From Euglena gracilis (taxonomy: Eukaryota): DNA of 64,000 nucleotides. Under the pieces are notes generated by a model. The model saw nothing but the letters and a program-made list of their open reading frames with translations. It did not search any database and was not told where the DNA came from. The stretch is taken from the NCBI GenBank assembly GCA_039621445.1, contig CP154954.1:17762589-17826588 (forward strand), given 5' to 3'. Position 1 is the stretch's first letter; each line of letters starts with the position of its first letter. Made by a program: the position numbers and the translations under genes. Shown here piece after piece: positions 6,107-34,332 of this stretch.

Positions 6107-6261
6107 CTTTCATGGAAATCAAATTTTTCTTTCTCCGCTTTTCTATATCGTCCAGATTGCTCTTCCTCCTCTGTATTGACTGGTCGGTGTGGTTGAACGT
6201 TGTTGAACTCGTTGAGTTGAAATTCTTTCTCCTTGAGGTCGAAGGGCAGAATTAAGAATCA

Positions 6262-12265: not shown

Positions 12266-12271
12266 GCAGTG

Positions 12272-12839: not shown

Positions 12840-13506
12840 ACCATCGAGATGTACAGCCAGATTTGGTGAGATGTCGTTCTGTTGCCTGCCAGACAGATTC
12901 TCTGAGCCAGGAATCCGTGGCTTGCCAGACATCTGGCAAAAGGCGGACAAGGACCAGACGGCTACAGCCGTCTGGTGGCCGAGATGGCTCGACCACCAAA
13001 AAAGTTTGGAAGATTTGAGGATTGATGCACAAAATTGGGGACCAGATTGGACATTGCAAAGACATTGTGATTGGTAATTACAATTTGCTGCAACTTTGAT
13101 TGTGGTCGGCTGCTGGGTATTTGTCTTTGGGTGTGGCCTGACGCCGCGGTACTGTGTGTACACCTGTGGATCGGCTGCGAAAGAATTTATCCGATGTGGC
13201 CTGATGCCGCAGAAGCGTGCTGCAATTTGGCTGCTAATCCCTCATTGGCTGAAACATAATCGCTCAGATCGTGTCACCCCTGTGTGCTGTGTAGTGTGTC
13301 GGTGGCAGGTGTGAAGACAATCACCCAGGACAGTGCCATTACAATTTCAAATGGACCACGTTTTTGCCCGGCCCCTCAAAAAATTTTGATGCCCCTGGCC
13401 CAATTTGGAGTCAGGTGAGATTGCCGAGGGCAATCTCTTGAGCAGGGGTGTGTGAGTGGTCCAGGTGCATTTTCATTTTCATGTCACCAGGAAATCACAG
13501 GCTGAG

Positions 13507-13946
13507 AGTGTACGTCCTACCTTATCGCTTTCGCCGTTTGGTGCGCACAAAAGGATATAAGTAGGCGTAACAAGAAAAAATATCAAATAAATATAAAAGT
13601 TGTTTTGCCCTTTTCCCCAATTAAGAGGCAGAGCACAAGACAGGGGAGAAGCCCTATGGGCTACGGAAATCGATGGCGGTTTTTGACTGTCCTTTCAGGA
13701 CTTCAAATCAGAAAAATCAAAGTTGAAAACTCAAGTCTTGAATCAAAGACCAGAATGGAATAAAATAGAAAATACCACCTGTGGAGAGGAGAACCAGAAT
13801 TATGCTTAGGTATTCCTAATTCAGGCCTTTGGCCATCTGTAGGAATAACACCTAGCATAGTACTGTGTATGGGCACAGAGGTATATCTGGCCGTAGGCTT
13901 ATACCTACATACACAGTACCATCGCCTTACGGCTGCCTGGTACACA
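13507..13946 (-). repeat. 3' LTR of element A
   Basis: Direct repeat of 44077-44518; preceded on the sense strand by PPT GGGAGGGGGA (13947-13956). Confidence 0.93.
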
Positions 13947-14773
13947 TCCCCCTCCCAGGGCTATGCCCGATTTCACTACTGGACCAGGCCAGCCGGAATG
14001 CCGGACACAGTCCTGGAGACGGGGACCTGTCACAGAGCCGTATGCGGCTTTTGGTTCTCCTGTCACCAGGGGTGTGGGAAGGAAATTGCGAAAAAACGCA
14101 AAAAAGCGCAAAAGTGATTAACCGCTTATGCGGTGCCTACTTATTGCGGCAAAGTGGTGGAAGCGGAAGAGCCCATTGGGGGCCGGAAGGTTTCCATTCC
14201 AGAAAGTCCCATCCACCCAGTTTGGGGTGTGTCTATGACACGTCGGGAGGTCTCATTCCATAATTGGAAAGGATGGAAGGGTAGGGTGTGGAAGGAGGGG
14301 GCACCTGGCCAGTCATATCTGACCAGGGAGGAAGACCTATTTACAAAACCAACTGCCGGCGACAGCGAGATTTTGCCCCGGGGGGTAAAGGAGAGAGGAG
14401 TGGGGGGCTGGTCAAAAGACCTTAGCAGAAGTTTTGCTGTCTGGCAATCTTATGTGGCCTTATAGCCGAAAAGTAACAAGTTGGGAGCTATTATTACGGT
14501 GTGCGCGCTGTACGCTGTGTGTCTTCTTACTGGCGGCATATACCGCTGTGGGAAGGCTTCACGGCGCGGCGCGGACACGATGTTGTCGATAGAGTATCCC
14601 TAGAGGCATATACCTCGACAGATGGGCGATAGCCCTAACGAGAGGGGGTCATATGCTAGTAAAAATACATAATGGCAGATGTGCCTGGGAAGGATACCGA
14701 ATACAGGGCCTATAGGCCTGATGGAAAGGTCAGAACAGGGTCCATGGACCTGTGGCTTGTAAGCCTGGGGTAT

Positions 14774-15611
14774 CTATGGCACAGAGGGGCATTTCCTGGG
14801 AGTCGGTGGTCTGATCTCCCGAACGTAATCTCCTTCAGGAGATTCCACTATCTCCAGTATTGGAGGTTCAAAATTTACAAGTTGCCTTTCAGGCTCATCG
14901 ACATCAAAATCGGGATATTCCCATTTTTGTGTAAAACCCATCGGGTAATCGTACTCCAAGCCTGTTGGCTTCTCGATGAAGAAAATTCTGGAGATTATCC
15001 CAGAAGAAAAGTGGCAACATTGCCGGCCAGATCCAAAAATTTAGGCGGGGGTGGTTGCATTGAACCTGTGGGGGTATCCCCGGATAAACGGCAGGATCTG
15101 CCTTGGTGTGCCAATCTGCGACTCGCGCTCGGATGGTGAATGGCCTTAAAACTTCTCTTACCCAATCGGTAAATTCCATTTTGTAGGCCTCAGGGGGGTA
15201 CTCAGGCAACAAAAATGTAAAATTTGGTCGGTTCGGCAGGCTTTGTGCCGAAAAAAGTGGGTATATCACCCTGTCCCAATCGGAATATTGAAAAATGTAT
15301 GGCACTTTGGCCTTGCCTGCTGACTCGACTGCGAGTCTGGCAAGCTGCGCTGTCAAGATGAAAATTTTTGGCGATTCCGCCTGTACGATAGCTGTGTACA
15401 GCTTTAAATTTCTTGAACTGGTAGAAATTGATTTGGGACTTATAGTCCTGCTTGAATTTGACCAGATGGTCTTCATTTTCTGGTATGACTCTGGTCATAC
15501 CGCCAGTGGCAGGTAACCAGAATTCTGCCTGTAGGCAGTTGATGCAACGGACAGGTATGTCCTTATCTTAAACGTTTTCCGTCCGGCGGAAATTGTCCAT
15601 ATTGGACCATG
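14774..15611 (-). pseudogene. C-terminal part of element A accessory ORF (downstream of nested element B)
   Basis: Removing B joins ...VCGDCLLT to WSNMDNFRRTENV*DKDIPVRCINC in frame with ORF 15202..15498. It continues by frameshifts into 14904..15476 and 14774..14959. Confidence 0.65.
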
Positions 15612-16251
15612 AGCTTCCCAGGGGGGGGTCCCGGTCTCGCTGGGGTTCCGGCAGGGTGGGTCCCGGGTCACGGATCCGGCGAGGGGGGGTGCGCGGGTGG
15701 CTCAGCCCCCACGGAGGCCCTGGGAAGCTCCGTGGGTGCTTGGAATGGGTTGGGATCCATTTTTTAGTATTCCCGGCGGCGGAGTGGAGGGGGGTGCCTC
15801 CTGCGATGCCTCTGGGGGTCTGCGGAGCCGCTTAGGTGGGCCCTCGCAGGGGGGTAAATTGAGGGGGGACAGAGGGGGGGCGGAAAAGCCTGGGTGCTAG
15901 GGGTTTTCAGGGGGTGCTTACCACCATTATAGCCACTTAGCCCATCCAAATCCAGAAAGTACCTTTGAAATTGCCTTGGGGCGCTCCTGGTAGGCCAATT
16001 CCTTGAGGTTTTCTTTGATCTCCTTGAAGGTATTTTCTCCTTTGGCAGTTTCCTTTGGTTTCTTTGAATTCTTTGAATTTGATTAAATTGAACAATTGAA
16101 CTTGAACAATTGAATTCCACTGCACAAATCAGATTGAATGCATGGAAACAAGGGAGCCTGCTGAAGGCAAATGCAGAAAGGGGGTGGTCAGGTAGTAGCG
16201 GAGGGTTCCGCTACTTTGTGTGCGCATGCGCTCAGGCCGCCGCCGCCCACA
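15612..16251 (-). repeat. 3' LTR of element B
   Basis: Direct repeat of 28575-29214 with scattered substitutions; PPT at 16252-16261. Confidence 0.93.
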
Positions 16252-19200
16252 CTCCCCTTCCTACCGAGGCGCCGGCCTCGCCTGCCTTTGGCTTACCCCG
16301 GCGGCGGGGGGCGGGAGCGGTGCGCACCAGGCATCGAGTGCACTATGTACAAAAAAAAAGGGAAAGGAACGTTATAACTGAGGGATGCAAGAATGGGGCC
16401 GTTCTGAAGGAACTTCGGCCTGGGGGTCGGCTTTGGCTCCGCCGTCCCTCCACAGAGCCCCGGGCGCGGAGCGCTGTGTGGCTTCCCGCCGCAGCGGTAG
16501 AACCGGCTGCGGGCGGGGCTCTGTGGGCTCGGGTTGGGTGTGCGACCGACCGCCCACTCCCTGTTCGGAAGCGCCGGCAGCCTGGTGGGTGAGGATGTCG
16601 TCCTCCGGGTTGACTTGCAGGCTGCGGCCAGGGAGTGGGTAAGGCATGTGCGCTCCCCGGCGGGCCTGGGGGGCGTGCTTGGGCTCGCCCTTGGCCGGGG
16701 GGGGGCGTGCCTCGCTCTGGGGCTGGCTGGTGCACGCTTGGGTCTGCCGGCTGGGGGGGGGGGTACCCTGCCCCTGGCTGGCTGGTGCGCGCTCGTGGCG
16801 CCTGGTGTGTGCATGCTCTGCGGGTGGCGTGCCTCCTCTTGCCCCCCGCTGTTGCCTGGCGCCCCTTCACACCTACGCCGGGGTGCCGTGGCCTTCCTTG
16901 AGGCCGGGGTCAGGGGGTTCGGTGGTCCAGGAAAGGAAAGAGTGAGACAGGGAAAAGGTGCGGTCCAGGGTCAACCCTCACCACAAGGTCAACCACAGCC
17001 TCCTGTGCTGCTCGCCGAACCACATTGCCACCGGCTGCGCTGCACTGTTGAATCCACGAGAAATCTGACGATGGGCACCAGGATGCAGATAAAACAATAC
17101 GGTAACGATGCAGATTGAACAAAACGGTGGTACTGCCCAAACCCCCTTACTCACCCCAGGTTGGCAGCAGGCTTTTCCGCTTTCCCCCCCCCCGCCCCCC
17201 TCAGGCTTGCGTAGCCGGGGCAAACGGGCGGCGGCCGGCTGGGTCCGGTCCGCCAGGTCGCACCGTGGGCCGGCTGGGCCTTTAGGGCCGGTCCCTCCGG
17301 TGGCGGGCCCCCTACCCGCCTGGGATGCGAGGGACGGGTCACTGGGAAGCCTGGGTACGAACCGTCAGACCTGGGTGAGGCAGGCTCGGGCTCGGTGCCA
17401 CACGGGCACGCACGGCTGCGTTGGGTCGCATGGTAACGTGCATGGGGTGGGACGTGCCATGGGGGGCACGTGTTCGGGCGGTGCTGCGTGGTGACTGGTC
17501 GTTGTGCTGCGGTGCGGTGCGGTGGGAGACGGGTCGGTGGGTCGGAGGCTGAGGTGAGGAGAACTGCGGGGCTGCGGGATTGGGGTGGCACTAGGGTACG
17601 GAGCTGATGTATGAGTTGTGGTGAGAGGTTGGGGAAGCTGGAAGCTGAGGGTGCTGTTGGAGGTTGGAGCTATGTTGAGGTTGCCGCTTCTGCCGTTGAC
17701 TAGGCCAGGTGGACCCGACCGGGCGCCTATGGTGGGCCTCTCTTTTGGCCTGCGTGGGCTTGGGCGTTTTTGGGGCTCTCCCCTTCCTGGCTTGCTGTTC
17801 CCTCGGCTGGTGTCGGTCTCTCCCGTTTCTCGTTGGGTGCTGTGGTGGCTCTTCGCCATTTTCTCTTGTGCTGGTGGGGTGTTTTTGTCTCTGCGGTTTT
17901 GCTGTCTCTCCTCTTGCTGGTGGCCCCGTCGCTGGGGTTCTGGGGGCTTCTGCCCCTCACAGCTGCTGGTTCGCCTCCTTCTCCTCCCATGTCCACTCAG
18001 TGGGGGGCTCTTCCCACTCAAGTGGCCACTTCTTGTCTTGCCTCGGTCCTCCTTCTACTGCTGACAGCCACACCCTGGACACCTCTGTTGGGTGTTTGGC
18101 CAGATGGGCCATGACATCCTCCTTCAGGTTCTTCTTCTGGAAGTAATCAACGATGGGCTGACTGTAGCTGTGGAAGAAATGGTGCAGTGGTTCCCAGGTG
18201 AGTTCGGTGGAACCTTCCCACTGCACCTTGAACTCCAACTCTCCTCCTGGCGTTCTTCGGTGGGTCACCACTTTTTCGACGTTCCACTCATCGATCCCGG
18301 TTGGAGGATCTGACCGGGCGTGCTTGAAGTGGAATAGCTTCACCGGTGATCCCAGCTCTTCATCGCCCTCTGTGTACGCCTTCAGCTGGCATCGGTGTGC
18401 TTCTTGCATCCTTCCTTCCTGCAGCTCCACCACGTAGCCGTGCTCACTCCTCCTCTCCATCACGCGGCATGGGCCCAGCCAGTAGCTCTCCAGCTTCTCT
18501 CCTGGCCTGCCCCTTGGCCGCAGGTAGCACGCCTTGCTGCCCACTTGCAGTGGTGTCAACTCCTTGCGTCGCTTGTTCAACTGCTCGGTCTTTTTTTGAT
18601 GCAACTGGTTCACGGTGTCTGCGACTTTCTTGTCCACCAGCTTCTGCCGCTCGAAGAAGCTCACTGCATCTTCGGCCTTGGTGGGTGGCTCGTAGGGGAC
18701 ACCAGCATACGGCCGGTGCCTTCCATAGAGCACTTCGTATGGCGATAGCCCGCCTTGGTCCTTCTTTGTCGTTGAGGCGTTGGACAGCGATGGGGAGTGC
18801 TTCCACCCACGGAATTCCTTTCTCTTCGTGGATGTGCCGCAGCTGCTTCTGCGGCTGTGCTCCCATCTGCTCTGCTCTGCCGTTGGCGGGGTGGTGGTGT
18901 GCTTGGGAGTAGGCGTGCTGCACGCCTTGCAGGGCACACATCGTTCGCCACCACGCTCCTGCGAAGTGGGGCCCCCTGTCCGAGGTGATCACACTTGGGA
19001 TCCCATGGGGCGACCACCACTTGCGGTACATCGCCTTGGCGACCTTGGCTGCCGTCAACCCCCTCGTGTGGTGTGCCGTGGCCACCGCCCAGCCGCTGTG
19101 TCTGTCGACGCAGCCCGCGACGACATTGAACAGCTTGCCCTCGAACTCCACCTCGGGCATCACAAACAGGTCGATGCAGACACTGGTCATGATGTCGGGC

Positions 19201-22200
19201 GGCACCGGTGTCGGTGTCACCTTCAGGTGCAGCGGCTAATGGGGGTGTTCCACTGCTTGGCAGTAGCTGCAGATTTTCTGCATCCTCTCTGCCAGCTTCT
19301 TTGCCTCCTCCTCGTCGGCGAACTGGAAGAAACGGTGAGCCTCCTTCATGAGCATCTCGCCTGCCCAATGGCCCGTTTGGGCATGCTGTGCTCTGAGGAC
19401 CTTGCCCCCCAGGCCCGTTGGCACGCACCAGACCCCATCCTTCAGGAGCCTCTTGTGTTAAACCCGGTAGCCCTTGGGCCACGGGTCTCCGATCGTGGTG
19501 TCATGCCACACGGTTTGTCATCTGGGGCACTTCTCGTAGTGCGGTCCCCAGTCCATGGTGTAGATGTCGATGTCCTCCTCGGCGTCTGCGGGGTCGGTGA
19601 TGGGATGATCAGGGGCAGATGTGGTTGGGGAGGGTGTTGGAATGTGTGGTGATGATGAGGATGGTGAGGGTGCTGGGATGCTGGATGACGGGGGTTGCGG
19701 CTGCACGATAGAGGTTTCGGGATGTTGATGGGGTGATGAGGTTGCTGGGTCGGCGGTTGATGTTGTGGCATCCTTTTCCTTGGGTGTTTCTGCTGTGGGT
19801 GCTGTGATTTCCACCACGTCATCCTCGTCCTCCACTGAGTCTTTGGCTGATTTGCTGCTGGTCTGTGGGACTGCTGGCTTTTCGTTTTTCTTTGGCATGC
19901 TGCTGGCTTGTCTGGCGGGTCTGGTGGGTCTTGCTGTGTCTTGCTGTGCTGGGCTTGGCGTCTCCATGTCGGTGGACCCCTTGGCTGTTGGTGCTGGCTG
20001 GTTCTTTTTCATCTGTGCTCGGGTGGTCACTGCCACTTCGGTGTTCTCGGTGGTTTTGTGCTTGAGCCGTATGATGCACACTTGCTTTTCTTCGGTGGCT
20101 GTGTCGATTGGGTGAGTGGCCTTTGGACACGATCTCTCCTCTTCCTTCTCCTTCTGGATTTGTTTTTGCATTTCTTTCGTGTCTTGATCGGTGCCATGCC
20201 AGGTGATGTCCTTGAAGCCTTGGCTGGCGGGATATGCCCATCTTGAGAGCGCATCTCCGATGGTGTTTGCTTGGCCTGGCACATGGATGACTTCCAGCCG
20301 GAAGTTGTTGAGCTTTGCATGCCACCTTGCTCGGCGGCCTTGTGGGCCGACTCCTGCGACATGCTCTTTGTACCACCCTTGTAGGCTCTTGTGGTCTGTC
20401 AGCACCAGCACCTCGTTGTCCAGAATGTACGGCGCCCACTTGTCCAGGGCGGAGACGATTGCATATGTCTCCTTGTCCCTGGTGTCCCACTTCTGCCGTT
20501 GGCCATCGGTGAGCTTGCGGCTCATGAAAGCCACGGGGATGGAGGCACCTGGCTTGATGTCCGCGAGGGACGGGAGTCCTTCCACCAGTGGTAACTGCTC
20601 CAGCGCCGCACCCACCGCATAGTCCGATGCATCTGTCCGAAGGACAAACGGCTTGGTCGGGTCCATGTGGTACAGCGCGAGGTCTGCCACGAGTGCCTGC
20701 TTCAGGCGCTCAAATGCGTTCTCTTCCTCGTTGGTCCATGTCACCGGGTGTTTGCTGCCTGCTTTGGCGAGCTCTCGGGGCAGCTTCAGCTTTTCCTGCA
20801 GCGGTGCCGCATATTCGGCGAACATTCGCACGTATCCGCTGTAATAATTGCACAACCCCAGAAATGCCTGGAGGTTGGAAACGTTTTTGGGCAGCTCCCA
20901 CTTCTGGACAGCTGCCAGTTTTCCTGGGGCTGGCGACCTTCTTCCTCCTCCCAGCACATGGCCGACAAACTCCACTCGGCGCATGAACAGCTTGACCTTC
21001 TTGGGGTCTGAGAACCACTTGTCGCACTCGAGGGCTGCCAGCGTCTCCCGGACATCTGCGGCATGGGCCTTCAGGAAGTCTTCTTCCGATTGGCCGACTT
21101 CTCTTTTGGTGCAGATGATGATGTCATCAAAGTACGGCCTTGTGCCTTTGCAGTCCGGCACACGTCGCATCGATGTCCCGTTGCAGCAGTGCTGGGCCCA
21201 CATTGATCCCTTGTGGGACCACGGTCCACTGCCACAGGCCGCCCGGCATTTGGATGTTGGTGATTGGCCGGGACTCGGCGTCAAGGGCGACTTGATGGAA
21301 GGCATCCCTGAGGTCCACTGTGCTGAACAGCTCACATCTTGCTTGCCCGGCCACGATATCCTCGGTGAGGGGCAGCGGGTAGCTGTCCGGCTGCAGCTGC
21401 TTGTTGGTGAGCGCATAATCGCACACCAGTCTCCACTTCCCGCTTTTCTTTTTTATTGGGAAGGCGGCTGCCCTCCATGGACCCCTCCCGGGTTCCAGCT
21501 TGCCGTCCTTCCGGCACTCTGCCTCCATTTCCCTCAGGGCATCATGCCTTTCTCCTCTCAGGTGGATCACTCTGCCCACCACTGGCACTGCACCTGACTT
21601 CAGCCTGAGCACGGCCTTGCCATGCGTCCCTCTTGCTGGGGGATTTGGCCACACTCTTTCCCGGAAGACGCGTCCTGCGTATTCATCCAGGATTTCTTGC
21701 CGGAGCTTGGATGCCAGTGGATCTGGATGCTCGTCGTCTGACTGCACCACGCCTCTGATTTCCACCTGCTCGCCCTGCACTTGGAGGACGTGCCTTGCTG
21801 CTTCCTGGAGTGCCTCGTTGTTGGAGATCTCCTCATCCGACGCACCTTCATCCTCCTCGGCTTCATGGACCTCTCCGGGGATGCACATCCGCATCTTCTT
21901 CACGAATGCCAGCATTTGCTCCTCCACATCTTCTTCTTCTTCCCACAGACACTCTTCTTCCTCTTGATGTCGTGTTGCCGTTGATGACAGGGGTTGCTGG
22001 AGGAGATGTTGGGTTGAGGATGCTGGGTGTGGTTGCGGCTCTTGCTGGGTGACCACTGTTGCTGTCGATCTTCCTTGTCCTTGGACGGTGCTGTTCTTCT
22101 GCGGCCACAGCACCCACCGTGGCGGATCATGCAGCTGGAGTGCATCTCTCCATGGCTGCACATCGAGGCGATTGACCTTCAACCACGGATATCCGAGGAT

Positions 22201-22639
22201 GAGGTCGCAGCCGATGTCCCCGTCGTGTGCGGTGACGGTGCTGCTCCACTGACTGCCCACTGGCACGCCCTCTTCGGTTCTCGCCTCGAAGGAGAGAGTG
22301 ATGGTGGCCACATTCTTTCCTCCGTTGAGCTCTTCGCCACTCACTGTCTTGAGCAGCAGCGGCTTGCTGGACTGCGTGAAGCAGGCTTCTGGAAGCAGGT
22401 CCTTCCGGCAGAGAGACGTCTGGGCTCCGGTGTCGATGAGCGCTTTTGCTTGGCGGCACTCACCATTGGCTTCCACGGTCACTTCCAGCAGCAGCTGGCA
22501 TCCGCCTCCTCTCCTTTGCATCCTGCCCACTCGAAAGCGGGCCGGCTTCAAATGCCATGGCTTGATGGTCACCTCTTGCACTTGGCTGTTGCGTACTGCT
22601 CCTTCTGCTTCGGTCGCTGCTTGTGGTCCTGTGCCTTGG

Positions 22640-23245
22640 CACAGGTACTCCACCACGCCGCTTGGGATTCTGTATGCCTCCTCTCGTGACACCCTGTGGG
22701 GGCACCTGCCTCCCAGCTGGAACCGGTGGCGCCGTCTTCCTTTGTCCCCTTGCACCGAGCTTTTGCATCGGCCATCGCACAACACGTTGGTGAGATCCCT
22801 GGCCATCTCCTTCGGTAACCAGAACCGGGTGGGCTTCCGGTAGCCGAAGTCTTCGAACATGCAGTAGTCGAGGTCCACAAAGGCCAGGTCTCGGACTACT
22901 CGCCTCCTGCGGAGCAGCCCGTGCCGGGGAATCTCGATCCACCACTTCGCCGGAGCGAGGTACTGGATGATCTCTTTTGTCTTCCTCACCACCGCATCTG
23001 CTTCCCTCAACCGCCTCGGCCTTGTCGTCATTGCCGACGAGTACTCGGTGCATGGTGGGGATGCTGCCACCAGATCGAAGTCACCAGGGGGATACTGCTG
23101 CCAGTACTCCCATCGCCTGATGTCTGCCACCACATCGGGATGCCACCGGGAGTCCCAGTCGACACTCACGACATGGTAGCCCATTGCCTCGAGGGCCCGG
23201 CGGACACTGCCCGTCTCGGAGAACAGGTCCAGTGCCCAGAGCTCA
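22640..23245 (-). CDS. C5-cytosine DNA methyltransferase domain within pol of element B
   Basis: Motif I LDLFSETGS, II VSVD, III ADI, IV FDLVAASPPCTEYS, VI WWIEIP (ENP-like), VII LDYCMF, VIII YRKPTRFW, and C-terminal YRIP. Confidence 0.88.
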
Positions 23246-23399
23246 CGTCCGCGGCTCTGCTGGTGCTTCTCTTCTTTTGCTTCAGGCGTCACTGAGCCTG
23301 GAGGCACGGATGTGGATGTGGCTTGGGCGATGTTGCTGGATGTTGGATGCGGATGCGGTGTTTCTTGTTGTAGATGTTGTCTTGATCCTTCTTGAGGCG

Positions 23400-24560
23400 G
23401 TTGTGGTTGATGCTGGTAATCGCTTGGTGGTTGGTGTTGTTGGTGGGGATGCGGCGATGTAGAAGTCGGTTCCGGTGGAGGTTGTTGTTGAGGTAGTTGC
23501 TGAGACGAAGTTGAAGGTTCTTGTGGGAGAGGTAGCGGGGTGTTTCCTTGTGATGATGATGGTGGTTCGAGTGGCGGCTGTAGCGATTGTGGATGTTGCG
23601 GAGGAGATAACGGTTCCTGTGGGCGATGAAGTTGGTGTGGGTGTCGCTGAGATGACGGAGACGGTTCTCGTGGTGGCAGCCGCGAAGGTGGGTGTCGCGA
23701 AGAAGATGAAGGTTCTGGTGGACGATAATGTTGGGGTGGATGTCGCTGCAAAGATGAAGACAGTTCTCGTGGCAGTGGCTGCGATGGCGGATGTCGTGAT
23801 GTGGATGAAGGTTCTCGTGGGAGTTGTGGTTGGTGTGGGTGTGGCTTAGATGATGTAGTCGGTTCTCGTGGCGGCAGCGGCGATGGTGGATGCTGTGGAT
23901 AAGATGAAGGTTCTGGTGGATGTTGACGTCGGAGTAGATGTCGCTCTGATGATGATGCGGGTTTGTGGGGTAGCTGCTGTCGAGGTAGTTGTTGCGGTGA
24001 AGATGAAGGTTCTGGTGGGAGTGGTCGTTGGGGAGGATGCAGCTTGGATGATGGTGTCGGTTCTAGTGGCGGCGGCTGCAGTCGGTGTCGGGGTTCGGAT
24101 GTCCGTTCTGGTGGGAGATGTCGTTGGAGGAGATGTTGGGGTGGGGATGACGGTTCTTGTGGATGATGCCGCTCGTGGGGTGGCTGCTGCGGGTTACATG
24201 TCCGTTCTGGTGGGGGATGTCGATGGTGGAGATGCTGGGGTGGAGATGACGGTGCTTGTGGCTGATGATGCTCGTGGGGTGGCTGCAGCGGGTTAGAGGA
24301 GCGTTTTGGTGGGAGCTGTTGATGGTGGGGATGTTTGGGTGGAGATGACGGTTCTTGTGGCGGATGATGCTCGTGGGGTGGCTGCCGGGTTTCTGGTCGC
24401 TTGTTGTCGGGCTGTTGCATGGCTGTCAGGCTTCTTGGGTGCTCTTCTTGTGGTGGATGCCGGTCGGTGTCACGCAGTGGATGTTGCTTTCTTTGGGGTA
24501 GGTGTTGCTTTTCTTGTTGTGGATGCCGGTTGGTGTCGCGGGGAGGGTGTTGTGTGGTAT
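23400..24560. repeat. Degenerate ~57-bp minisatellite encoding a P/Q/S/H-rich linker upstream of the MTase
   Basis: Recurring GATGA(A/C)GGTTCT(C/G/T)GTGG units, translating as (P/R)EPSSS.QHP repeats. Confidence 0.8.
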
Positions 24561-24929
24561 ATGTTGACCCTTGAGGTGGTTGTCGCGATGAGGTTGTTGT
24601 TTCCTGCTTACTTCCTTTTCCCTTGGAGTGGTTGTTGTTCTTTGTCGTTGATCTTTGCCATTTCCTTGGCATAGATCTCTCCCTTTTTCTTCCTTCCTTC
24701 CCTTTGTGCCTTGATCCCTTTCGGGTTGTGTCATCGGAGGTGATTGTCTTGGCTTGCGGTTTCTTTTCTTTTTCTCCACCACCTGCCATCCTTCCTCCTC
24801 TCAATGCCTGGACAGGGTGGTGGAGCACACCTGCACGGTTCTCACCTCGTGCACTTCCTCTTGCCCGTCTCCGGCTCGGGGTTTTGACTGCCTGCCCAGG
24901 CCTCCTCCCCTGGGGCCTGGGCGGCCCCT

Positions 24930-27900
24930 TCACTCCTCACACTCCTCCACTGCGGCGACACTCCTCCCTCGGCCGCCGTCCTTTTCACCTTTGCCTTTTC
25001 CATCTCCCTTTCCTCTGCTCTTGCCTTTCTCATCGCCTTTGCGTTTGCCACCCTTGTCTTGTCCACCACCTTTGCCATCTCCTCCCTTTGACCATTGTGG
25101 GTTGCCTTTTCCTTTGCCTTTGGCATCCCATGAGTTGTTCCACGACGCTCCGCCTTGGTACGGGGCATTCTGCCACTGTCCCGATGATGACCACTCTGGT
25201 TGTCGATCTCCTCCCTTCACCGCCGGTGGCGGTGAAGGTGCACTTTGGGTGGGCTGTGGTCCGGGTTGCACCGTGCTTGTCGGTTGCTCCTCCTTCTTCT
25301 CAGACACCTTTGGAGGTGTCGGGGGCCTCTTATCTTGCCGTTTGTTTCCCTTGCCCACTTGCCGGACAACTTCTTCCTCTTCTTCTTCTGCACCATCCCA
25401 CTCTGCATCCACTTCCCGGTGCCACCGCGGCTGTGGCCGATGGTCTTGCCTTTGGGGGCCGGAGCTTTGCTGCGGCTCGGGCGCGTTGGCGATCCGCTCC
25501 TCCGTTCGGAGCCAACGAGTCATCAGCTCGTTGATTTCTTTCGGCCCCAACTCCGCATTGTCCGGGGAGACCTTGACAACGCTCCCGCCTTGGAGCCGCT
25601 GCCGGTCATAGAGGATTTTGATGGCATGCCGATGCTCTTCCCCTTGCGGCGTCACCTTCACTCGCTTTCCGAACCGTCGCACGGCAAGTGGTCTCAGCCC
25701 GGTCTCCGCCAGCACCATGTTCTCCACCTCCTCTGTGGCCACATCGATTGGCAGCCCATCGAGCACCAAGGTGCCCCTCTCTGTCCTTTTGTCCTCCTCC
25801 GTCGCCAGCTTTCTTCGCCACGGATCCCTTGGGATCGCATTCATCAACAGGCGACTCAGTTCTGCATCACTGACATCGCCAAGTTGCCCAGCCAGGGTCA
25901 TCATCTGTGCGTAGAGCTCACGCCACGACTTCTCCGTTGGCTTGCCCGCGTGCGCCATCTTCAGCCGGTGGAGCTTGCGGCGGAGGACCTCCTTGTCTTC
26001 CGCACCGAACTCCAGGTCGAGGCGCGCCCAGTACTCCTCGTACCCGAGGTCCGGATTGGCTTCCAGCTCCTGGACCACCAGGAGAGCCCCGGCCTCGTCG
26101 AGTGCACTTCGCAGCAACGCCAATCGCTGTGCGTCGGTCATTGCTGGCATCAGCCCTTCCGTTTCTCGTAGATACGGAATCCACTTTCTTCTCCACATTG
26201 GCCAATCTTCTGCGATCCCGCTGAACCTTCCGGGATGTCTGCCGCTGATGGACTCCAGGAGTTGTGGGGGTAGGAGTTGGAGTTGTGGACTGACGGTGTG
26301 TGCTTGCACTGGGGCGATGGTCACTTCCACCCCCCGCACCGCCGTTCTGGTTGTGCTCCTGGGTGGCTGTGTCACTTGCGTCATTGGCATCACTGCTTGT
26401 ACTGGGATTGATGTAACTGCTTCACTTTGCACCATTGATCGCGTGCTCTTTCTTGCCAACCTGAACGCCGGTCGCACCGCAACCGAAGATTGTTGTCGTG
26501 CTTGTATTTCTGGGTACGGTTGGGACGGAAATGTGTGGACCTCTGCACGTTGACGGACTTCTTCACGGGGGATGTGTGGTTCCTGGATGGGCGTTGTTGT
26601 GCTGAGCTGTAGCCGTGCGACTTGTCTCGCCAGATCTTGCACTTCTCGCTCCATCTGTTCACTGCTGCTCATATTGGGGCGTGATTGTTGCCGGATTAGC
26701 TGAATGTCCCTCTGTATTTCCCTGAGCTGTGTCTTTGTCTCCTTGATGGCCTTGGAGAACGCTCCCTCCCAATGGAGCACTCTCTCCCGCAATTGTTGGA
26801 TGCCGTCCTCCATCTCTTCCGCTGATTGCAGTGGTTGTTGTGGGAGTTGAAGTCGTTTGATCTCCTCGTGCATCTTGTTCTCCACCCGCTCCATGGCCCT
26901 TGCCAGTGCTTCGTTCGCCATCTCGACCTTCTTGCTCAGCCGGAGAAGGTCTCTGTCCTTCTCATCTTTGGCTCGGGCCATGGAGGTCTCCAGGGCTTGT
27001 ACCCTGCCCCCAAGGAGATGGAAGTCGTGCACCTGGATCTCGAGCTTCCGGACGTACTCCGTCGTCTCGCGCTTGAACTGCTTGTTGTTCTGCTCGAGGG
27101 CCTGCACCTTGAAGATCAGATCCTGGATGAGAGTGTCGGATGTGGTCGGTTGTTGGAGTTGCGTTGTCTGTTGTTTTTGCTTCATCTCCTGGATCTCCTT
27201 TGCCATCACCGCCACCTGAGTCTGTTGTGCTTGTTTCATTGCCTCCACCTCCTTCTTGATCGCCGTCACTTCCTCCACCATTGCCCGTTTCAGTCGGTTT
27301 TTCGATTGTTCGATTTCTTGGATCCGCACCGTCATTCTGTTCATTGCCACCTCCATCTCCGGGTTCTGGATCGGTTGTTGTGGTTTTGGTGATCCTTTTG
27401 CTGCTTGCTGCTCGTGTTCGCGCCGCATCATTTCCACTAGGGACCGGATGTCGCTGTTTCGCGTCACTGTTTCCATCTTGATCTGCTCCTTCACCATTTG
27501 GACCTCGCTTTCAACGACGGTGATTCGCGCATCGTGTTTGCTGATTGCGTGTATTGTCGCGGTGTCGATGGCTGCACCATTGGAGGATGATGATGATGCC
27601 GCCTCGGTCTTGATCTGCTCCTTCAACCCTTGGACATCTCGTTCCACCATCGCGAAGCGAACCTCGTGCTGTGTGATCGCAGTTTGCGCAGCACTCGCGG
27701 CTTCGTGCAGCGTTGTGGTCTCCGCCGCGCATCGCATTGAAACGTCATACGCACGTGTTGCTTGCTCGCGGACGAGATTGACTGCGGTGTCGCACGCGGT
27801 GATCAGTCGTTTGACTACCTCGATGTCTTGTTGTTGTTGCGCCGCCATCGCTTCGATGTCGTTGAACACGTCGTCCTGCTTGTAGTCACCCTCGGTAGGC

Positions 27901-28250
27901 CACCATCCTCCTTCAGACCCCCAAGGTTCCCACCGTTGTTCCTCCCACTGCTCCTGCTCCTCTGTCTCCTCTGCTCCCCCTTCCTCTGGGGAGAGTGTCG
28001 GGACCTTCTGGGGCCGGGGAGTGGCCCCAGAGGAAAACGGGGTCCGCAGCCCCATGTCTCGGCTCCCTTGGGGGGGCTGCGGTCCATCGGTTGGGTCCGG
28101 GACGTCGGATGTCGGGGAGGAGTAGGATGGGGGATGAGGGCTGAAGGATGGGGGATGTGTGGTGTATGAGAAGGAGGGTGGGGGACGGATGGAGAAGATG
28201 GAGGGATGGTTTGGGTCGGAGTCGGTGGGGGAGAAGGGTGGAGGCAGCAC
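24930..28250 (-). CDS. Gag of element B (coiled coil, capsid-like region, RRM-like domain, KG-rich tail; no CCHC knuckle)
   Basis: 1106-aa intact ORF after the PBS. PGRFSG..EDWPMWRRKW is a capsid-type motif; long heptad-rich region; GKGKG C-terminus. Confidence 0.82.
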   Translation of the reverse strand: MLPPPFSPTDSDPNHPSIFSIRPPPSFSYTTHPPSFSPHPPSYSSPTSDVPDPTDGPQPPQGSRDMGLRTPFSSGATPRPQKVPTLSPEEGGAEETEEQEQWEEQRWEPWGSEGGWWPTEGDYKQDDVFNDIEAMAAQQQQDIEVVKRLITACDTAVNLVREQATRAYDVSMRCAAETTTLHEAASAAQTAITQHEVRFAMVERDVQGLKEQIKTEAASSSSSNGAAIDTATIHAISKHDARITVVESEVQMVKEQIKMETVTRNSDIRSLVEMMRREHEQQAAKGSPKPQQPIQNPEMEVAMNRMTVRIQEIEQSKNRLKRAMVEEVTAIKKEVEAMKQAQQTQVAVMAKEIQEMKQKQQTTQLQQPTTSDTLIQDLIFKVQALEQNNKQFKRETTEYVRKLEIQVHDFHLLGGRVQALETSMARAKDEKDRDLLRLSKKVEMANEALARAMERVENKMHEEIKRLQLPQQPLQSAEEMEDGIQQLRERVLHWEGAFSKAIKETKTQLREIQRDIQLIRQQSRPNMSSSEQMEREVQDLARQVARLQLSTTTPIQEPHIPREEVRQRAEVHTFPSQPYPEIQARQQSSVAVRPAFRLARKSTRSMVQSEAVTSIPVQAVMPMTQVTQPPRSTTRTAVRGVEVTIAPVQAHTVSPQLQLLPPQLLESISGRHPGRFSGIAEDWPMWRRKWIPYLRETEGLMPAMTDAQRLALLRSALDEAGALLVVQELEANPDLGYEEYWARLDLEFGAEDKEVLRRKLHRLKMAHAGKPTEKSWRELYAQMMTLAGQLGDVSDAELSRLLMNAIPRDPWRRKLATEEDKRTERGTLVLDGLPIDVATEEVENMVLAETGLRPLAVRRFGKRVKVTPQGEEHRHAIKILYDRQRLQGGSVVKVSPDNAELGPKEINELMTRWLRTEERIANAPEPQQSSGPQRQDHRPQPRWHREVDAEWDGAEEEEEEVVRQVGKGNKRQDKRPPTPPKVSEKKEEQPTSTVQPGPQPTQSAPSPPPAVKGGDRQPEWSSSGQWQNAPYQGGASWNNSWDAKGKGKGNPQWSKGGDGKGGGQDKGGKRKGDEKGKSRGKGDGKGKGEKDGGRGRSVAAVEECEE

Positions 28251-28560
28251 TGATGGGGCTTCATAGAGCGATGGGAACGGGGGGAAAAGGGGATTTCCGG
28301 TTGACTTTCCTTTCCGTGGGGTGGGGGTTCGATCCCGAGGGCTATCGAGATCAAAATCATTTGTACTTGGGGACAGCAGGGCTAGGGCTGTGCATTGGGC
28401 ATCCCCGTGGGGCTACCACGGAGATGTGATGGGGGGCCCCCGTAGGGGATTGCGGGCATCGCTGGGGTGGGGTCGCGGAGTGCTGGACCTCGGCCGGTGA
28501 TGTGAAAGTTCACCTCAGAGTGGGCCGCGAGGAATGGGTTGTTGTGTGGGGTAGGGTCGT

Positions 28561-28575
28561 AAGCCTCTGCTACCA
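28561..28575 (-). promoter_or_regulatory. Primer binding site (initiator tRNA-Met type) of element B
   Basis: TGGTAGCAGAGG directly after the 5' LTR; an identical copy is at 50121-50135. Confidence 0.85.
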
Positions 28576-29214
28576 GTTTCCCAGGGGGGGTCCCGGTCTC
28601 GCTGGGGTTCCGGCAGGGTGGGTCCCGGGTCACGGATCCGGCGAGGGGGGGTGCGCGGGTGGGATCAGCTCCCACGGAGGCCCTGGGAAGCTCCGTGGGT
28701 GCTTGGAATGGGTTGGGATCCATTTTTTAGTATTCCCGGCGGCGGAGTGGAGGGGGGTGCCTCCTGCGATGCCTCTGGGGGTCTGCGGAGCCGCTTAGGT
28801 GGGCCCTCGCATGGGGGGAAATTGAGGGGGGACAGAGGGGGGGCGGAAAAGCCTGGGTGCTAGGGGTTTTCAGGGGGTGCTTCCCACCCTTATAGCCACT
28901 TAGCCCAGCCAAATCCAGAAAGTACCTTTGAAATTGCCTTGGGGCGCTCCTGGTAGGCCAATTCCTTGAGGTTTTCTTTGATCTCCTTGAAGGTATTTTC
29001 TCCTTTGGCAGTTTCCTTTGGTTTCTTTGAATTCTTTGATTTTGACTAAATTGAACAATTGAACTTGAACAATTGAATTCCAATGCACAAATCAGATTGA
29101 ATCCATTGAAACAAGGGAGCCTGCGGAAGGCAAATGCAGAAAGGGGGTGGTCAGGTAGTAGCGGAGGGTTCCGATACTTTGTGTGCGCATGCGCTCAGGC
29201 CGCCGCCGCCCACA
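28575..29214 (-). repeat. 5' LTR of element B
   Basis: Direct repeat of 15612-16251; begins TGTGGGCGG on the sense strand. Confidence 0.93.
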
Positions 29215-32200
29215 CATGTCAGTAGGCAATCGCCACAAACCAATGATGCGCAATTGTGCACATAAGCATCATGTTGGAAGCTTATGCTGTCCGGGTTGCG
29301 TGTGCAGATATGCACTGCGGGCATATCGTTTCGTAGTCTATGGCATGCTGTACATAACCACAATAGTGGACCATTTTCCTGGAAATCCAGGACGAAATTT
29401 CCTCCAAAATATTGGGCTAATACCCTTGGAGATTTCGCATTCCAAAAACGCCAAGTGTGGCTGGTTGTGAAAATACCGGGTTGATCCCGGTGGAACAAGG
29501 GCTTGATCCACTTGTTCAGCCAGGGGTCACTGCTTTTTTGCGATCATATTGATCCTAGCCTGGCGAGTGTTGAGGAGGTCCACTCTGGACAACACGTCCT
29601 CAGTCCAAAATGGCTCATCGGCCTCGTGAGGGACATTAGACCGAATCGGTCTGATTGTGGGTTTGCGCTTAGCGCCTTCAGAGGTTGCAGCCACATAGCT
29701 GGCCATGGGTATAGTAGGCCTATGGCCAGTGCCAGAGCCGTCTCCACCAGAAGGTGGCGGCTCATCATCCCGTCGCTGTTCAGCGGGCTTGCAGCCTTCG
29801 GCTGAAGGTTTAGCCTTAGGCTTCTTATGTTTGCCATATCGGCGTTCTTCCCGAGGGTCTGCCGGAGGCAGTGGTCTTTCCGCCGTTGGCGGTTTCGGGG
29901 CTGCCGGTTTGGCAGGAGGTGCCGATAATTTGGCAGGAGGTGGTTGCATATCTGCTGTTGGCGGTGTTGGTGCAGCTGGTTTGGCTGCTGGGATATCTAA
30001 CTCCATTGGAGTTGTGATCGCAGCCTGTACGGCTGTTGTGCAGCTATTTGCAGCCGTAACCCTTTGGGTTTCGGCAGGGGAAGCGGCTGGTGAGCCTCGA
30101 GGGGTCAGTACTGCTGATACTGCGGACATTGCCGCGGTCAGACCCTATAGCACACCACCTAAAACACCTGTAGGTATTGTTGGTGATGCGACAGGTTCTG
30201 TCGGGGTTGGTGCCGTTGGCACTGCGGGTAAGGCTAGGGGTGGTACCGGAGGTACCGGTGGCCGTTCGGCATCGAATGTAGGAGATTCAGTCTCTGAGCT
30301 GACATCACCTTCAGGTGGAAGGGGTGTCCTAGAGCCCATTGGGACTGGTGGAAGGGCTGATTTCTGCGTTTCATCAGCACATATGTCTTCCAGCCGTTCC
30401 ATGCGGTCTTCACCGCCCTCACCATCATTCTCCCTACTGTCCTCCACCGTTTCTGGTGAAGCGGCAGTGGCTGCTGGTTGTTCCGCTATAGCGGTAAGCA
30501 CAGGTGTTGGTTGCGCAATCGCGCTGGTGATGGGAGTCGCTATTGCGGGCTGGGGGGAAGAGATAGCCACAGAAGATTGACTCTCCTGGAATCCCTTAGG
30601 GATAAATGGTTCCGCAGTAGCCGACAGGCTTGAACCGATATAGTGCCTACCACGCCCGAAAACGGGTGGAGGTGTTTCACCAGGAATTCCCGGGGGAACG
30701 GGTGTTGCCGATTGCGGCTGAGCTGTGACTGATGTTGCCAGTTGCGGCTGGGTTGAGGATTCCGATTGCGGAACTTCCGCAGCCGGTTGCGGCTGTGGCC
30801 GTGGCACATGTCTTTTCCGTAATCGGAAAAGATCCCATGGTTTCCTTTCGTCTTCAACCATTCTGTGGTTGAAGCGCAGGAGGGGTGGGGCCATGCCCAG
30901 CTCGTTCCGTCTGCCGCCTTGGAAAAACGGCTGGAACAGCGCCTTATCGAGCGTATCGCCGAATCGGCGTTTGACATAATCGTCCATGCTTTCCTTCTCG
31001 AACCGGGGCCAGATGGGGACATACATAGTCCGGGGGAATTTCCCTATCGGGATTGAGATAATAATATATCTCCATGATCTGGCAGGCCCACGCCCTGAAC
31101 CAGAATTGCTGCAAATACAGCAGGAGTTGACGGTGGTTGTGTCGCCCGTTCGAGCTTTGGTGAACATCCTTTGGATTTCTGCAACGGTGCAGCAGCATGA
31201 CGCGCTTTGGCGCTGCCTGCGGGACATTGGCCTGTTGGCCTTCCTCGTCCTGGCCTTCGGCCTGTGGTTGAGTACTGCGTACTCCGAATCCCCAGAAGTC
31301 CACTGCAAATTTTTCGTGACAGTGGGAACATCTGACGATGTACGTCTGGGGGAAGCGTAGGTCAATATCGACCACTTCGAAGTGATAGGCATATTTCCAG
31401 TGGTAGAAGACTTGCAGATTGCTGCAGAACATGTTTTCTGCCAATTTGGCAATATTGTCAGGCAGTGGGTAGATCTCCCACTCCAGGCCTTTTGGGCCCA
31501 CACTGCGAATGCAGTCGAATAACTGCCGTAGCAGATCTTTACCTGTATTGTATCGGTCTTCCCGACCACAACCCAGGTAAGGATATCCACAGGAGTTCAA
31601 GAATCTGCCGAAACTTTGGGTGGGGTATCCCGCCCAGAACCAAACATGCCAGAATCCCGGCAGATCGTCCAGTATCGGACCGAGGATGACGTTGCCCTCA
31701 TAGGCATACAGAGTTCCATCATGGTGGAACTCACGGTTACGCTCCAGATAGAGCTGTCGGGTCACGGTCACAACGGGAGATGCGACCTAGATTGGGAGAG
31801 AAAGTTCGTTTTGGAACTTTCGCATGGCCTCGAATGCGAGTTCATGGTTGCTTTTGATGTGCTCGAATAGAGCTTCCATGTCGGCCTCATAGACGTTCCG
31901 ATATTGGCCTTTCTGGCCTTTAGCTGGGGGTCGTTTGGGAGCACTTTCGGCTTTACCCCTGCCCGATCGGGCTTCCCTTCGGGCAATCTCTTCTCTGGCT
32001 TGTTTCCAAGCATGAGGATTGAGATTGGCTGCAAAACGAGGGCCTATAAAGATCGGATTTATATCGCTTGTGCGGCCAATCAATTCCTGTGGGGCATAAG
32101 CCATTTTGGCGGCTGGGTAAGCTGCAGGTTGATCCTGCATGTCCGCCAATAGCGGTGGGTTATTGTCAGGGAGGGGTTCGCCTCTAGGCGGATCGATGTA

Positions 32201-34210
32201 GGTGGGGTTACGTACACGTTCGAGGGTATCCTCGAAAAATTTATTCACGCGTGCACGCTCTGCAGCTTCGTGCTCGACTTCTGCCCTTTCTGCTCTTTGC
32301 GCCAGTTCGGCTTGTTCGAGCTGTTGTCGGGTGGGTTCAGGAACAGGCAGTACCTCGGTGGTGGCTTGTTGGCCTGGAGATACCGGTGTTTCCTGGGGTG
32401 GTGTCGCCTTTGGCGCGATGACAGGCTGTGGCGTCGTTGGCGCTGCTACAGGCTGTGACGCCGTTGGCGCTGCTGTGGCTGCTGGTTCTGCTGACTTTGC
32501 TGGCACCGGTCTGGAGGGTTGCGACACTGGCGCTGGCCTGGCCGGCGCAGCTAACGGTACAGGCACTGGAGGGGGTGCGGCCTGTTGGCCTCCCGATGCC
32601 CGACGTTGCTGTGCAGGGGTAGCCTGTCTGGCTGGGGCTGAGGCAGGGGCTGGGGGTTTCGGTCTCCCCATTGGGGATGAAGATTCTGGCCTGCCCCGTT
32701 CACTACCTAGGTCTGCTGGCCTGTACAGCTGTGACGCATATCTGCGTTCTGCAGACCGTGGGCCCTGGAGCTGCTCCAGGGACTGGTAGTACTGGATGGC
32801 CTGCTGAGGTGATGTGAAGCGAGGTGCCGGGAGAGGTTCATGTACCGTTGGTACATCCTCTTCCACAGCCATACGGCCTTCGGCCTCGGCTTGCTCCACA
32901 TCCTCAACCCAGGATCCAGGTACCTGAGCCACCGACATATCCCGTTGTACGGGTAACTGACTTCCAGCTTCCAGATGGGCTGGATAAGGAAATGGTGGTA
33001 GTGCCGTTGACGGTTGCGTCGTTGGCTGATACGCATATTGCGTTGGGATTTCCCGATATTCGGGTGGTGGTGGTCTCGGCATACGAGTTGGGGACGGGAT
33101 ATCGCGAAAAATTCGCGATGGCTGCACCATTGGTGCTGGGATATCTCCCGTCTCGCTCTCCTCCACTGGGGGGCTATGCTCCCGCATGTATTCGGTGAAT
33201 GCACCTGAGTGATGGCGTATCCGCGGGATAGGCGGTACTGGAATACCCAGTGTACGCATGCTGACCTGAGGGGGATATTCCCCGGGCATGAAGCACACTT
33301 TTCCTGTCATCAAAGTCTGGCCACATGCGCACCATTGTGCAATAGGCCTACTGGCCAGGCCTAGAATTTGACGACAGTGGGTATCCCACAGCACCTGTAG
33401 AGATGGGTCTACTCTCTCTAGGTTGCTCGCCCGCAAGGCCGTTCACAGAGTCTTCTCTGCGAGATTCACCAATTCTGCGGTGAAGGCGTGGTATGGCACC
33501 GTTGGTGCCACCTGTGGCGTCTCATGCGCCACAGGGATCGCATAAGCGGATATACTATTGCTGCTGGCTGCGGTTTGAGCAGCGGGTTCCCGGACGGGAT
33601 TAGCAGCAGGTTGGGGCATCGCCTGTACGGCGTGTACTTGATGCGGGGTACCCTGTACGGGTTGAGATTGGGGTTGGGATTGGGGTTGCTGAGATGTAAC
33701 ATACTGTGGGGTATACAGGATGGGAGGTGAGGGGCCATGCATGGCGTAATGCGCCAGCTCCACTGGAGGTGCCTGTCCCTGCCTCGCATGCTGTTGTTGC
33801 TCCATTGGAACTTGGTGTACCTGCTGGGGTTGTGACTGTTCCATTGGAACCTGATATGCCTGTTGAGGCTGTGCCGCATATGCAGCACCCATTTGCACAG
33901 GGTCCGCATAAGCGACAGGTGGCGTTTGCGCCTGAGATGGGGGCGGCATTTGTGCCTGAGAGGGGGGCGGCATTTGTGCCTGAGAGGGGGATGACATATG
34001 TGACTGAGAGGGGTATGGCATTTGTGCCTGAACCATTTGAGGGGGGGTGGCACTTGTGCCTGAGCCGCATAAGCGGCTGGAGGGGGTTGATATACCGCAT
34101 ATGCGGGCTCCCCTTAGGCTGGGGGTGCCGCCGCATAGGCGTGTGGGGGGGTAGAGAGGGATGGCATACTGTATAGGGGGCGGTCCTGGGCCGCGCCCTG
34201 GGTCTTGCAT
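29215..34210 (-). pseudogene. N-terminal/central part of a very long accessory ORF downstream of pol in element A
   Basis: ORFs 33443..34336, 31787..33436 and 30944..31771 are in one frame separated by single stops, as are 30145..31590 and 29527..30129. P/Q/A-rich tracts alternate with Cys/His clusters. Confidence 0.7.
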
Positions 34211-34332
34211 TGGTCCGGGGACCGAAAGCAAAAAAAAAAGTAGCTTTGATGAGCTGTAGAAAAAGAAGAGATAAATGAATTGGTGGATGGTCAAAAACAC
34301 AGAGAGGGGAGGAAAAGGCCTATAGGCCGATT

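Follow-up and report, generated by a model that had tools for sequence, protein, structure and literature searches.

Downstream of pol in a long terminal repeat (LTR) retrotransposon of Euglena gracilis lies a long open reading frame (ORF) that is a genuine third gene of the element, far too open to be a product of chance. The element, here called A, is a chromovirus located in a stretch of 64,000 nucleotides (nt) of contig CP154954.1 (GenBank assembly GCA_039621445.1, positions 17,762,589–17,826,588 of the forward strand), referred to below as the window. The gene, termed ORF3, is present across the very abundant family of A as far as contigs can show. At a probability of about 0.5, we read ORF3 as a real third gene of this chromovirus family that encodes a nuclear zinc-binding accessory protein, with a position like that of CERV in the Caenorhabditis elegans retrotransposon Cer1 and a function that is proposed here. 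The copy of A in the window is dead, with stops, small insertions or deletions, and a younger LTR element, B, nested in it. Coordinates of all features are collected in Table 1.

ORF3 as a third gene of element A

ORF3 starts with an ATG at position 34210 on the sense strand of A, approximately 120 nt beyond the pol stop, and follows a path of ~1,940 codons to position 14774; from there, 830 nt remain to the 3′ LTR. Its place in the element is thus after the pol stop and ahead of the putative polypurine tract. Neither a second ORF3 copy within the window nor a repeat of the central domain inside ORF3 was found.

In the window copy, the frame is broken by four in-frame stops and four frame changes, and additionally interrupted by element B. 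The original prediction had described a long sense-strand ORF after pol whose fragments are joined via single stops and a few frameshifts, and both the ORF list and a three-frame reading of the regions flanking B bore this out. Likewise, the flank translations agreed with its claim that ORF3 had been split by B at a clean CATG target duplication and that excision restores the frame. Specifically, the upstream ORF3 frame stops two bases into the CATG of B, and upon removal of B and one CATG the upstream frame (first codon 29699) continues exactly into the frame starting at 15609. This joining is arithmetic on two separately translated flanks.

The longest open frames of ORF3, 551 and 483 codons, were compared with 300 dinucleotide-preserving shuffles, for which the mean was 164 and the maximum 314 codons. 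Downstream of B, the longest frame comprised 196 codons, against a maximum of 179 in 300 shuffles. Furthermore, the central domain showed the codon-position bias that is usual for coding DNA (G 0.32 at position 1, A 0.36 at position 2).

In a simple hydropathy scan, no 19-residue window in any ORF3 piece exceeded a Kyte–Doolittle value of 1.12, and neither a signal peptide nor a membrane-spanning helix, as expected of a retroviral or errantiviral Env, was detected. Since there is no hydrophobic helix, the predicted product is not env-like, in agreement with the earlier note.

Presence across the family and breaks private to the window copy

Fourteen DNA runs of one organism contained 38–46% of the sampled words of 29216–34360. 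Contigs from two DNA runs (X1 and X2) and reads from two RNA runs were then compared with 29100–36300 (7.2 kb) at 90% likeness; 14774–15611 lay outside this comparison, the stretch spanning the LTR pair of B having been avoided. From the two DNA runs, 24,897 and 28,278 contig pieces matched, and 30 of 30 bins were covered. The original prediction had named, as a finding that would speak against it, a separate insertion or a capture absent from sister copies. As far as contigs can show, the present copy did not capture ORF3 for itself alone, since family contigs cover all bins. Summed depth, which is not copy number, was of the same order in the ORF3 bins (76k–481k) and the pol bins (430k–1,210k) of X1, and the bins of lowest depth were the low-complexity linkers.

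The contigs also permitted a look at the breaks. Position 31788 lies within the second stop, and there a different letter stood in every contig (13 of X1 and 10 of X2). One base of the present copy at position 29541 was absent from 13 and 12 contigs (depth 1622/1947 and 3464/4019). At position 31023, 27 and 23 contigs were without four bases that the present copy has twice; this tandem duplicate, checked against the window, accounts for the frame change at 31019–31026. Three of the five breaks within 29100–36300 are thus absent from family contigs, and at least three ORF3 breaks are private to the present copy.

At 34291–34292, contig depth fell to ~1,300–2,000, compared to hundreds of thousands nearby, and several rare contigs skipped 100–390 nt between 34081 and 34483. 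The drop and the skipping contigs (34198–34302) indicate that the pol–ORF3 junction varies among family copies.

The central domain and its relatives

The central 411 residues of ORF3 were searched with HMMER against 1.84 billion protein representatives. Five proteins were found at E ≤ 0.001, the best two at 9.3e-21 and 8.3e-11, and the E-values of the relatives in the resulting family (P0004–P0008) ranged from 9.3e-21 to 2.4e-05. Two of the five are close fragments from Logan contigs (58–61% identity), and a third is a fragment of 74 residues. The remaining two, of 426 and 332 residues, are diverged full-length relatives from ENA assemblies (E 3.9e-08 and 2.8e-06). All five are without a protein name. 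Aligned pairwise with the window copy, the 332-residue protein P0007 gave an E-value of 2e-13 over ~160 residues.

The homologous core corresponds to ~31259–31720. Its alignment keeps FPQ-x-Y-x2-(R/E)-C-x2-C, followed by DFWGF and, 20–40 residues later, by H-R-C or H-H-C. The first Cys of the CxxC is invariant in the five-row alignment, and HRC or HHC is kept in the four rows that reach there. As a whole, the motif CxxC...DFWGF...H-x-C persists in P0006, P0007, and P0008 as well as in the window copy, and is partly lost in the fragment P0005. In the window copy, CSHC is encoded at 31319–31330 and HRC follows later; this cluster and a WCAC cluster, both mentioned in the original prediction, are present in the ORF3 translations. 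Because the relatives keep CxxC...HxC, the CSHC...HRC cluster is most simply read as a conserved four-ligand motif, a putative zinc ribbon or knuckle. Protein language-model neighbours of P0007 were zinc-ribbon families at 0.89–0.90, a lead only. Judged by its sequence, the central region founds a domain family that no library describes.

Other searches added no members. A word-index protein search with the central domain yielded none among 3,453 candidates of 226–720 residues, and the same index searched with the central-domain profile returned only two of the profile's own input rows. Pfam gave nothing usable on P0006, P0007, and P0003. For the model of P0007, Foldseek found no match in PDB and BFVD at E ≤ 0.001, and in a further fold comparison (VIA) the highest Z, 3.4, came from one helix only. 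A by-eye match of the C-terminus of P0007 to the frame after the shift at 31020 was dropped (BLASTP E 2.8). PDB sequence searches gave nothing below E 0.6, and scans of viral contigs and prokaryote genomes were without a match. DUF7560 on one ORF3 piece was sub-threshold (E 0.075, 13.2 bits compared to a cut-off of 27) and was rejected.

The eight-cysteine cluster

The C-terminal globular domain of ORF3 comprises ~400 residues and contains eight Cys with the spacing C-x2-C-x12-C-x17-C-x4-C-x2-C-x24-C-x2-C, where x24 includes one stop and the whole is read from two separately translated flanks. This amounts to four Cys pairs, three of them CxxC, within ~76 residues. Among 20,000 composition shuffles, 5 had three CxxC within 80 residues, which marks the cluster as non-random, and 24 had four or more CxxC anywhere. 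A zinc-binding module of some kind, with its ligands in four pairs, is a well-founded reading of the cluster.

The original prediction went further and assigned RING/PHD/ADD-like spacing. The spacing itself, in frame across B, was as stated; the fit to the consensus was not. RING fingers follow C-x2-C-x(9-39)-C-x(1-3)-H-x(2-3)-C/H-x2-C-x(4-48)-C-x2-C, and PHD and ADD domains have the ligand order C4-H-C3 with third–fourth and fourth–fifth gaps of x2-4 and x4-5, respectively. In ORF3, x17 separates the third Cys from the fourth, and x4 the fourth from the fifth, instead of the x2-3 of RING. If the His located two residues before the fourth Cys is taken as ligand, the third–fourth gap becomes x1 and the next gap remains x4. 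Compared to PHD and ADD, the fifth ligand is Cys and not His, and the third–fourth gap is again x17, or x1 with the His.

These observations bear on the best-surviving alternative, that of the original prediction, in which the cluster is a cross-brace RING, PHD, or ADD finger and ORF3 would counteract silencing by the host, either as an E3 ligase or as a chromatin reader. The non-random arrangement of three CxxC and four Cys pairs speaks in its favour, as does the chromodomain of element A, which makes chromatin contact a part of its biology. Moreover, language-model (Atlas) neighbours of the six-Cys flank upstream of B were RING-type in 10 of the 10 best matches with a family (0.78–0.81). Atlas scores below 0.9 are leads only, however, and one third of shuffled proteins also obtain ten concordant families. 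The spacing departs from RING, and a PHD would have His as fifth ligand; neither the six-Cys flank nor the downstream piece, into which B cuts the domain, matched any Pfam family at E ≤ 0.1, RING, PHD, and ADD included; the model of the six-Cys flank had a predicted local distance difference test (pLDDT) value of 35; and the link to a methyltransferase (MTase) drawn in the original prediction is wrong (see below). Altogether, we regard a cross-brace finger with such a role as unlikely. Ubiquitin-ligase activity of the cluster is possible but less likely.

Of all the evidence on ORF3, that on this domain is the weakest. A word-index search with the six-Cys flank gave no candidate among proteins of 59–191 residues. 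A metagenome match to this flank covered 20 residues on a 502-kb contig (L001); other ORF3 pieces were unmatched there, and it was taken as chance.

Proposed role of ORF3 and alternative readings

According to the reading that we prefer, an accessory protein of the CERV kind, the ORF3 protein would consist of a Pro/Gln-rich disordered head, a central globular four-ligand domain, a Pro/Ala-rich linker with basic patches, and the eight-Cys C-terminal domain. It would be made from a subgenomic, probably spliced, mRNA; splicing is suggested because an acceptor-like tract precedes the ATG by 44 nt, and this tract is a possible splice acceptor for such an mRNA. The protein might be a nuclear factor that binds nucleic acid or chromatin in a zinc-dependent manner, and might help A's own expression or targeting, as CERV, which it resembles in position and general make-up, does for Cer1.

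Several results weigh against this proposal. Transcripts, which the original prediction had suggested looking for, received next to no support from two RNA-seq runs: 30 and 27 reads, on both strands, fell on the 7.2 kb compared, with ~12.9 million records per run. The fit was partial in 24 of the 30 and 26 of the 27 reads, and no splice joint was seen in the reads on 29100–36300, a stretch outside which the 5′ leader lies. The low count says little on conditions other than the sampled ones. No part of ORF3 matched a known family when nine pieces were scanned with Pfam. The C-terminal domain, interrupted by the 13.6 kb of B, was analysed as two separate flanks; these flanks gave no relative in metagenomes, the protein word index, or PDB, and the pLDDT of the six-Cys flank is given above. 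AlphaFold modelled P0007 poorly (mean pLDDT 53; core of residues 128–215 at 70–86). The stops at 33443–33445 and 30145–30147 did not appear among the 40 of 368 variant rows listed and are not callable as private. Finally, since 14774–15611 lay outside the read comparison, the stop at 15568–15570 may be the true end of ORF3 and the three breaks in this stretch may be real features.

Next among the alternatives, and improbable in our view, is that ORF3 is a passenger, made of host-gene pieces that an ancestor of the family captured and that have no role in the element cycle. It would fit the occurrence of the central domain elsewhere in two proteins (332 and 426 residues) that apparently stand alone, the long low-complexity linkers between unrelated-looking modules, and a relative of A in the window, element D, which has kept its LTRs and ends but not ORF3. 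D is also without reverse transcriptase (RT) and integrase and non-autonomous, however, and is therefore uninformative on the need for ORF3, and the stand-alone relatives may themselves be element genes. Furthermore, a passenger of 5.8 kb would be costly, yet it is found throughout a very abundant family, and its frame is open apart from recent private breaks.

A further alternative has two or more genes in place of one, with ORF3 ending at 15568–15570, just past the site of B, the frame at 14904–15494 (196 codons) being a separate ORF4, and the last CxxC lying outside the finger. There are three breaks in the 838 nt downstream of B compared to five in the 5 kb upstream, an early Met is present within the 196-codon frame itself, and the read comparison covered 29100–36300. 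On the other hand, the chance of a CxxC within ~30 residues after the stop is ~0.007 (from a Cys fraction of 0.015), and the frame stays open for 121 codons beyond the stop. We consider a division into several genes a rather poor prospect.

Lower still we place the most far-reaching proposal, a new class of retroelement accessory protein of ~1,940 residues, conserved across thousands of chromovirus copies. It would combine the undescribed zinc domain with a non-canonical cross-brace finger that opposes host silencing by ubiquitin-ligase activity or as a chromatin effector; the zinc domain occurring also in small stand-alone proteins of other eukaryotes is a part of this proposal, and that all of it holds jointly is quite doubtful.

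That the region is non-coding, with chance open frames in GC-rich DNA full of Pro codons, might be suggested by its GC content of 56%, by frames of 293 and 195 codons likewise present on the opposite strand, and by the few RNA reads, but it is extremely improbable and already close to refuted by the shuffles, none of the 300 reaching frames of 551 or 483 codons, and by the protein relatives, found only in the sense frame and down to E 9e-21, the breaks moreover being private to the present copy.

Element A and its surroundings

Paired LTRs with a target-site duplication, and the succession of a gag that contains a CCHC knuckle, protease, RT, RNase H, integrase, and a C-terminal chromodomain, identify A as a Ty3/gypsy chromovirus. 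Pfam matches were zf-CCHC (E 5e-08), Peptidase_A3 (0.0032, weak), RT_RNaseH_2 (1.6e-16), rve (3e-05), and Chromo, and additionally Integrase_H2C2 and SH3_Tf2-1; gag contains a coiled-coil. The assignment of RT rests on RT_RNaseH_2, the RT core not having been scanned separately. The sense strand adjoining the 5′ LTR starts TGGTAGCAG, and the run GGGAGGGGGA lies before the 3′ LTR. A primer-binding-site-like run beginning TGGTAGCAG adjoins the 5′ LTR in both A and B, and would be a candidate for pairing with the 3′ end of initiator tRNA-Met. Scanning the window for Rfam families and tRNAs gave nothing.

The LTRs of B are more alike than those of A, as expected because B is the younger, nested insertion. 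Both B and a third GC-rich element, C, are chromovirus-like LTR elements with a GC content of 58–65% and a C5-MTase-like domain between gag and protease. In B, this domain matched Pfam DNA_methylase below the cut-off (E 0.0062); that of C shows 59% protein identity to it and lies outside the 5′ LTR of A. The original prediction had the accessory ORF carried together with the MTase. Element A has no MTase-like domain, the only ones in the region being those of B and C, so ORF3 and the MTase merely ended up nested. The second large ORF of B (the MTase–protease–RT frame) contains a tandem array with a period of 99 nt; located just upstream of the MTase-like domain, this array codes for a Pro-rich repeat of 33 residues.

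Element D has in common with A gag (~81% at the nt level), the start of the protease, and the final 550 nt preceding the 3′ LTR, and is without RT, integrase, and ORF3. It is a deleted relative of A and probably non-autonomous.

Further away, a unit of 1.8 kb is present in three head-to-tail copies (98.6% identity). It adjoins two RT-bearing elements, whose RT domain was confirmed by Pfam and whose downstream ORFs look, by eye, like DIRS-type recombinase elements.

Table 1. Features of the window discussed in this study (positions are those of the window)
Feature	Position	Strand	Remarks
Element A	13507–44518	minus	Ty3/gypsy chromovirus; LTRs, 5-bp target duplication, gag, protease, RT, RNase H, integrase, chromodomain
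LTRs of A	13507–13946; 44077–44518		95.25% identity over 442 nt (window self-comparison)
Target duplication of A	13502–13506; 44519–44523		CTGAG on both outer sides
Primer-binding-site-like run of A	44051–44076	minus	adjoins 5′ LTR
Pol end (integrase SH3 domain and chromodomain)	34336–34962	minus	Pfam Chromo E 4.8e-08, SH3_Tf2-1 E 3.4e-07
Pol stop of A	34333–34335	minus	
Pyrimidine tract ending in CAG	34254–34270	minus	before ORF3 ATG; sequence reading; acceptor-like
ORF3 open frames upstream of B	33443–34360; 31787–33442; 30944–31786; 30145–31596; 29527–30144; 29151–29543	minus	
ORF3 open frames downstream of B	15202–15567; 14904–15494; 14774–15040	minus	
ORF3 N-terminal part	32294–34210	minus	Pro/Gln/Ala-rich low complexity (P 15–18%, Q up to 15%); stop 33443–33445
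ORF3 central globular region	30900–32293	minus	stop 31787–31789; 4-nt tandem duplication 31019–31026 shifting the frame
ORF3 linker	29700–30899	minus	Pro/Ala/Thr-rich, basic patch; stop 30145–30147; lowest contig depth
ORF3 C-terminal domain, upstream half	29219–29699	minus	six Cys at 29226–29354 (CTAC, C, C, CGDC); 1-nt frameshift at 29541
ORF3 C-terminal domain, downstream half	14774–15611	minus	CINC 15535–15546; stop 15568–15570; two frame changes (one each somewhere within 15205–15494 and 14907–15040); final stop 14774–14776
3′ untranslated end of A	14092–14638	minus	common to deleted relative D (59904–60454); 82.9% identity over 562 nt; tblastx
Nested LTR element B	15612–29214	minus	gag, Pro-rich repeat, C5-MTase-like domain, protease, RT, RNase H, integrase, chromodomain; GC-rich
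LTRs of B	15612–16252; 28575–29215		97.35% identity over 642 nt
Target duplication of B	15608–15611; 29215–29218		CATG
Primer-binding-site-like run of B	28561–28574	minus	adjoins 5′ LTR
MTase-like domain of B	22597–23259		
Tandem array of B	23453–24400		
Element C	~44700–50000		MTase-like domain 45420–45998
Element D	52427–61031	plus	LTRs 96.9% alike
1.8-kb repeat	6824–12271		
RT-bearing elements	3146–6109; 61951–63999	minus; plus	

Significance and comparison with known systems

To our knowledge, LTR retrotransposons commonly have additional genes after pol, almost none of these genes has a known function, and CERV of Cer1 is a rare studied case. ORF3 is unusually large, its family fills a sizeable part of the host genome, and it holds a conserved domain absent from databases. 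If intact copies exist, they would offer many natural variants from which selection on each ORF3 module could be read, and a tractable pair of small zinc domains for tests of nucleic-acid binding or ubiquitin transfer. For annotation, ~6 kb per copy are best treated as element coding sequence and not as host genes or spacer.

CERV is described as the product of a 3′ ORF of Cer1, with 517 residues and a five-exon spliced mRNA that starts in gag; it contains a nuclear localization signal (NLS) as well as a Cys loop, and export of the genomic RNA requires it; the authors point out that 3′ ORFs of this sort, with functions not known, occur in many LTR elements (PMC10309623). As far as that account goes, CERV and ORF3 are alike in being encoded after pol, in not being env-like, and in lacking relatives of known function; ORF3 takes up the corresponding position, from its ATG at 34210 to its end before the 3′ LTR. 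Both would have globular domains on flexible linkers, basic NLS-like patches, and a Cys-rich putative zinc site. They differ in their hosts, in that ORF3 is much longer than the CERV described and has its own ATG, and in that its splicing is only suggested by the acceptor-like tract. The likeness, which may or may not extend to function, is one of position and general make-up, not of sequence comparison.

The post-pol position is also that of Env in errantiviruses and endogenous retroviruses, from which ORF3 differs in having neither signal peptide nor membrane span. With RING and PHD fingers the ORF3 cluster shares eight potential ligands in four pairs with CxxC as the outer pairs; it departs from them in the inner spacing and in the lack of a profile match on its flanks. 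Among the titles listed in a literature search on element-encoded RING or PHD fingers, nothing relevant was found.

The plant Ty3/gypsy element Retand, as portrayed in PMC11963269, has a long region of several kb separating pol from the 3′ LTR, with extra ORFs that run antisense and encode TRP28. Retand resembles A in owing its size to the post-pol region and in its extra, possibly nucleic-acid-binding, coding capacity (PMC11963269). Unlike A, it is described as a non-chromovirus with antisense ORFs; A has a chromodomain, and its additional ORF is in sense and gave no Pfam family.

Retrotransposons with captured epigenetic domains, namely DNMT, DAM, MBD, and ALKB, have been reported (preprint 10.64898/2026.05.21.726589; see also PMC6673714 and PMC9289625). 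With a C5-MTase-like domain and a chromodomain, B and C belong to the DNMT-bearing retrotransposons as outlined in the preprint, their MTase-like domain being, by its sequence, a diverged member of this theme. Element A is unlike such domain-capturing elements, as far as the preprint describes them: its added modules match no known epigenetic domain and are encoded in a separate ORF rather than inside pol. LTR retrotransposons that carry a large accessory ORF are a kind already known, and what is new here is one undescribed domain family.

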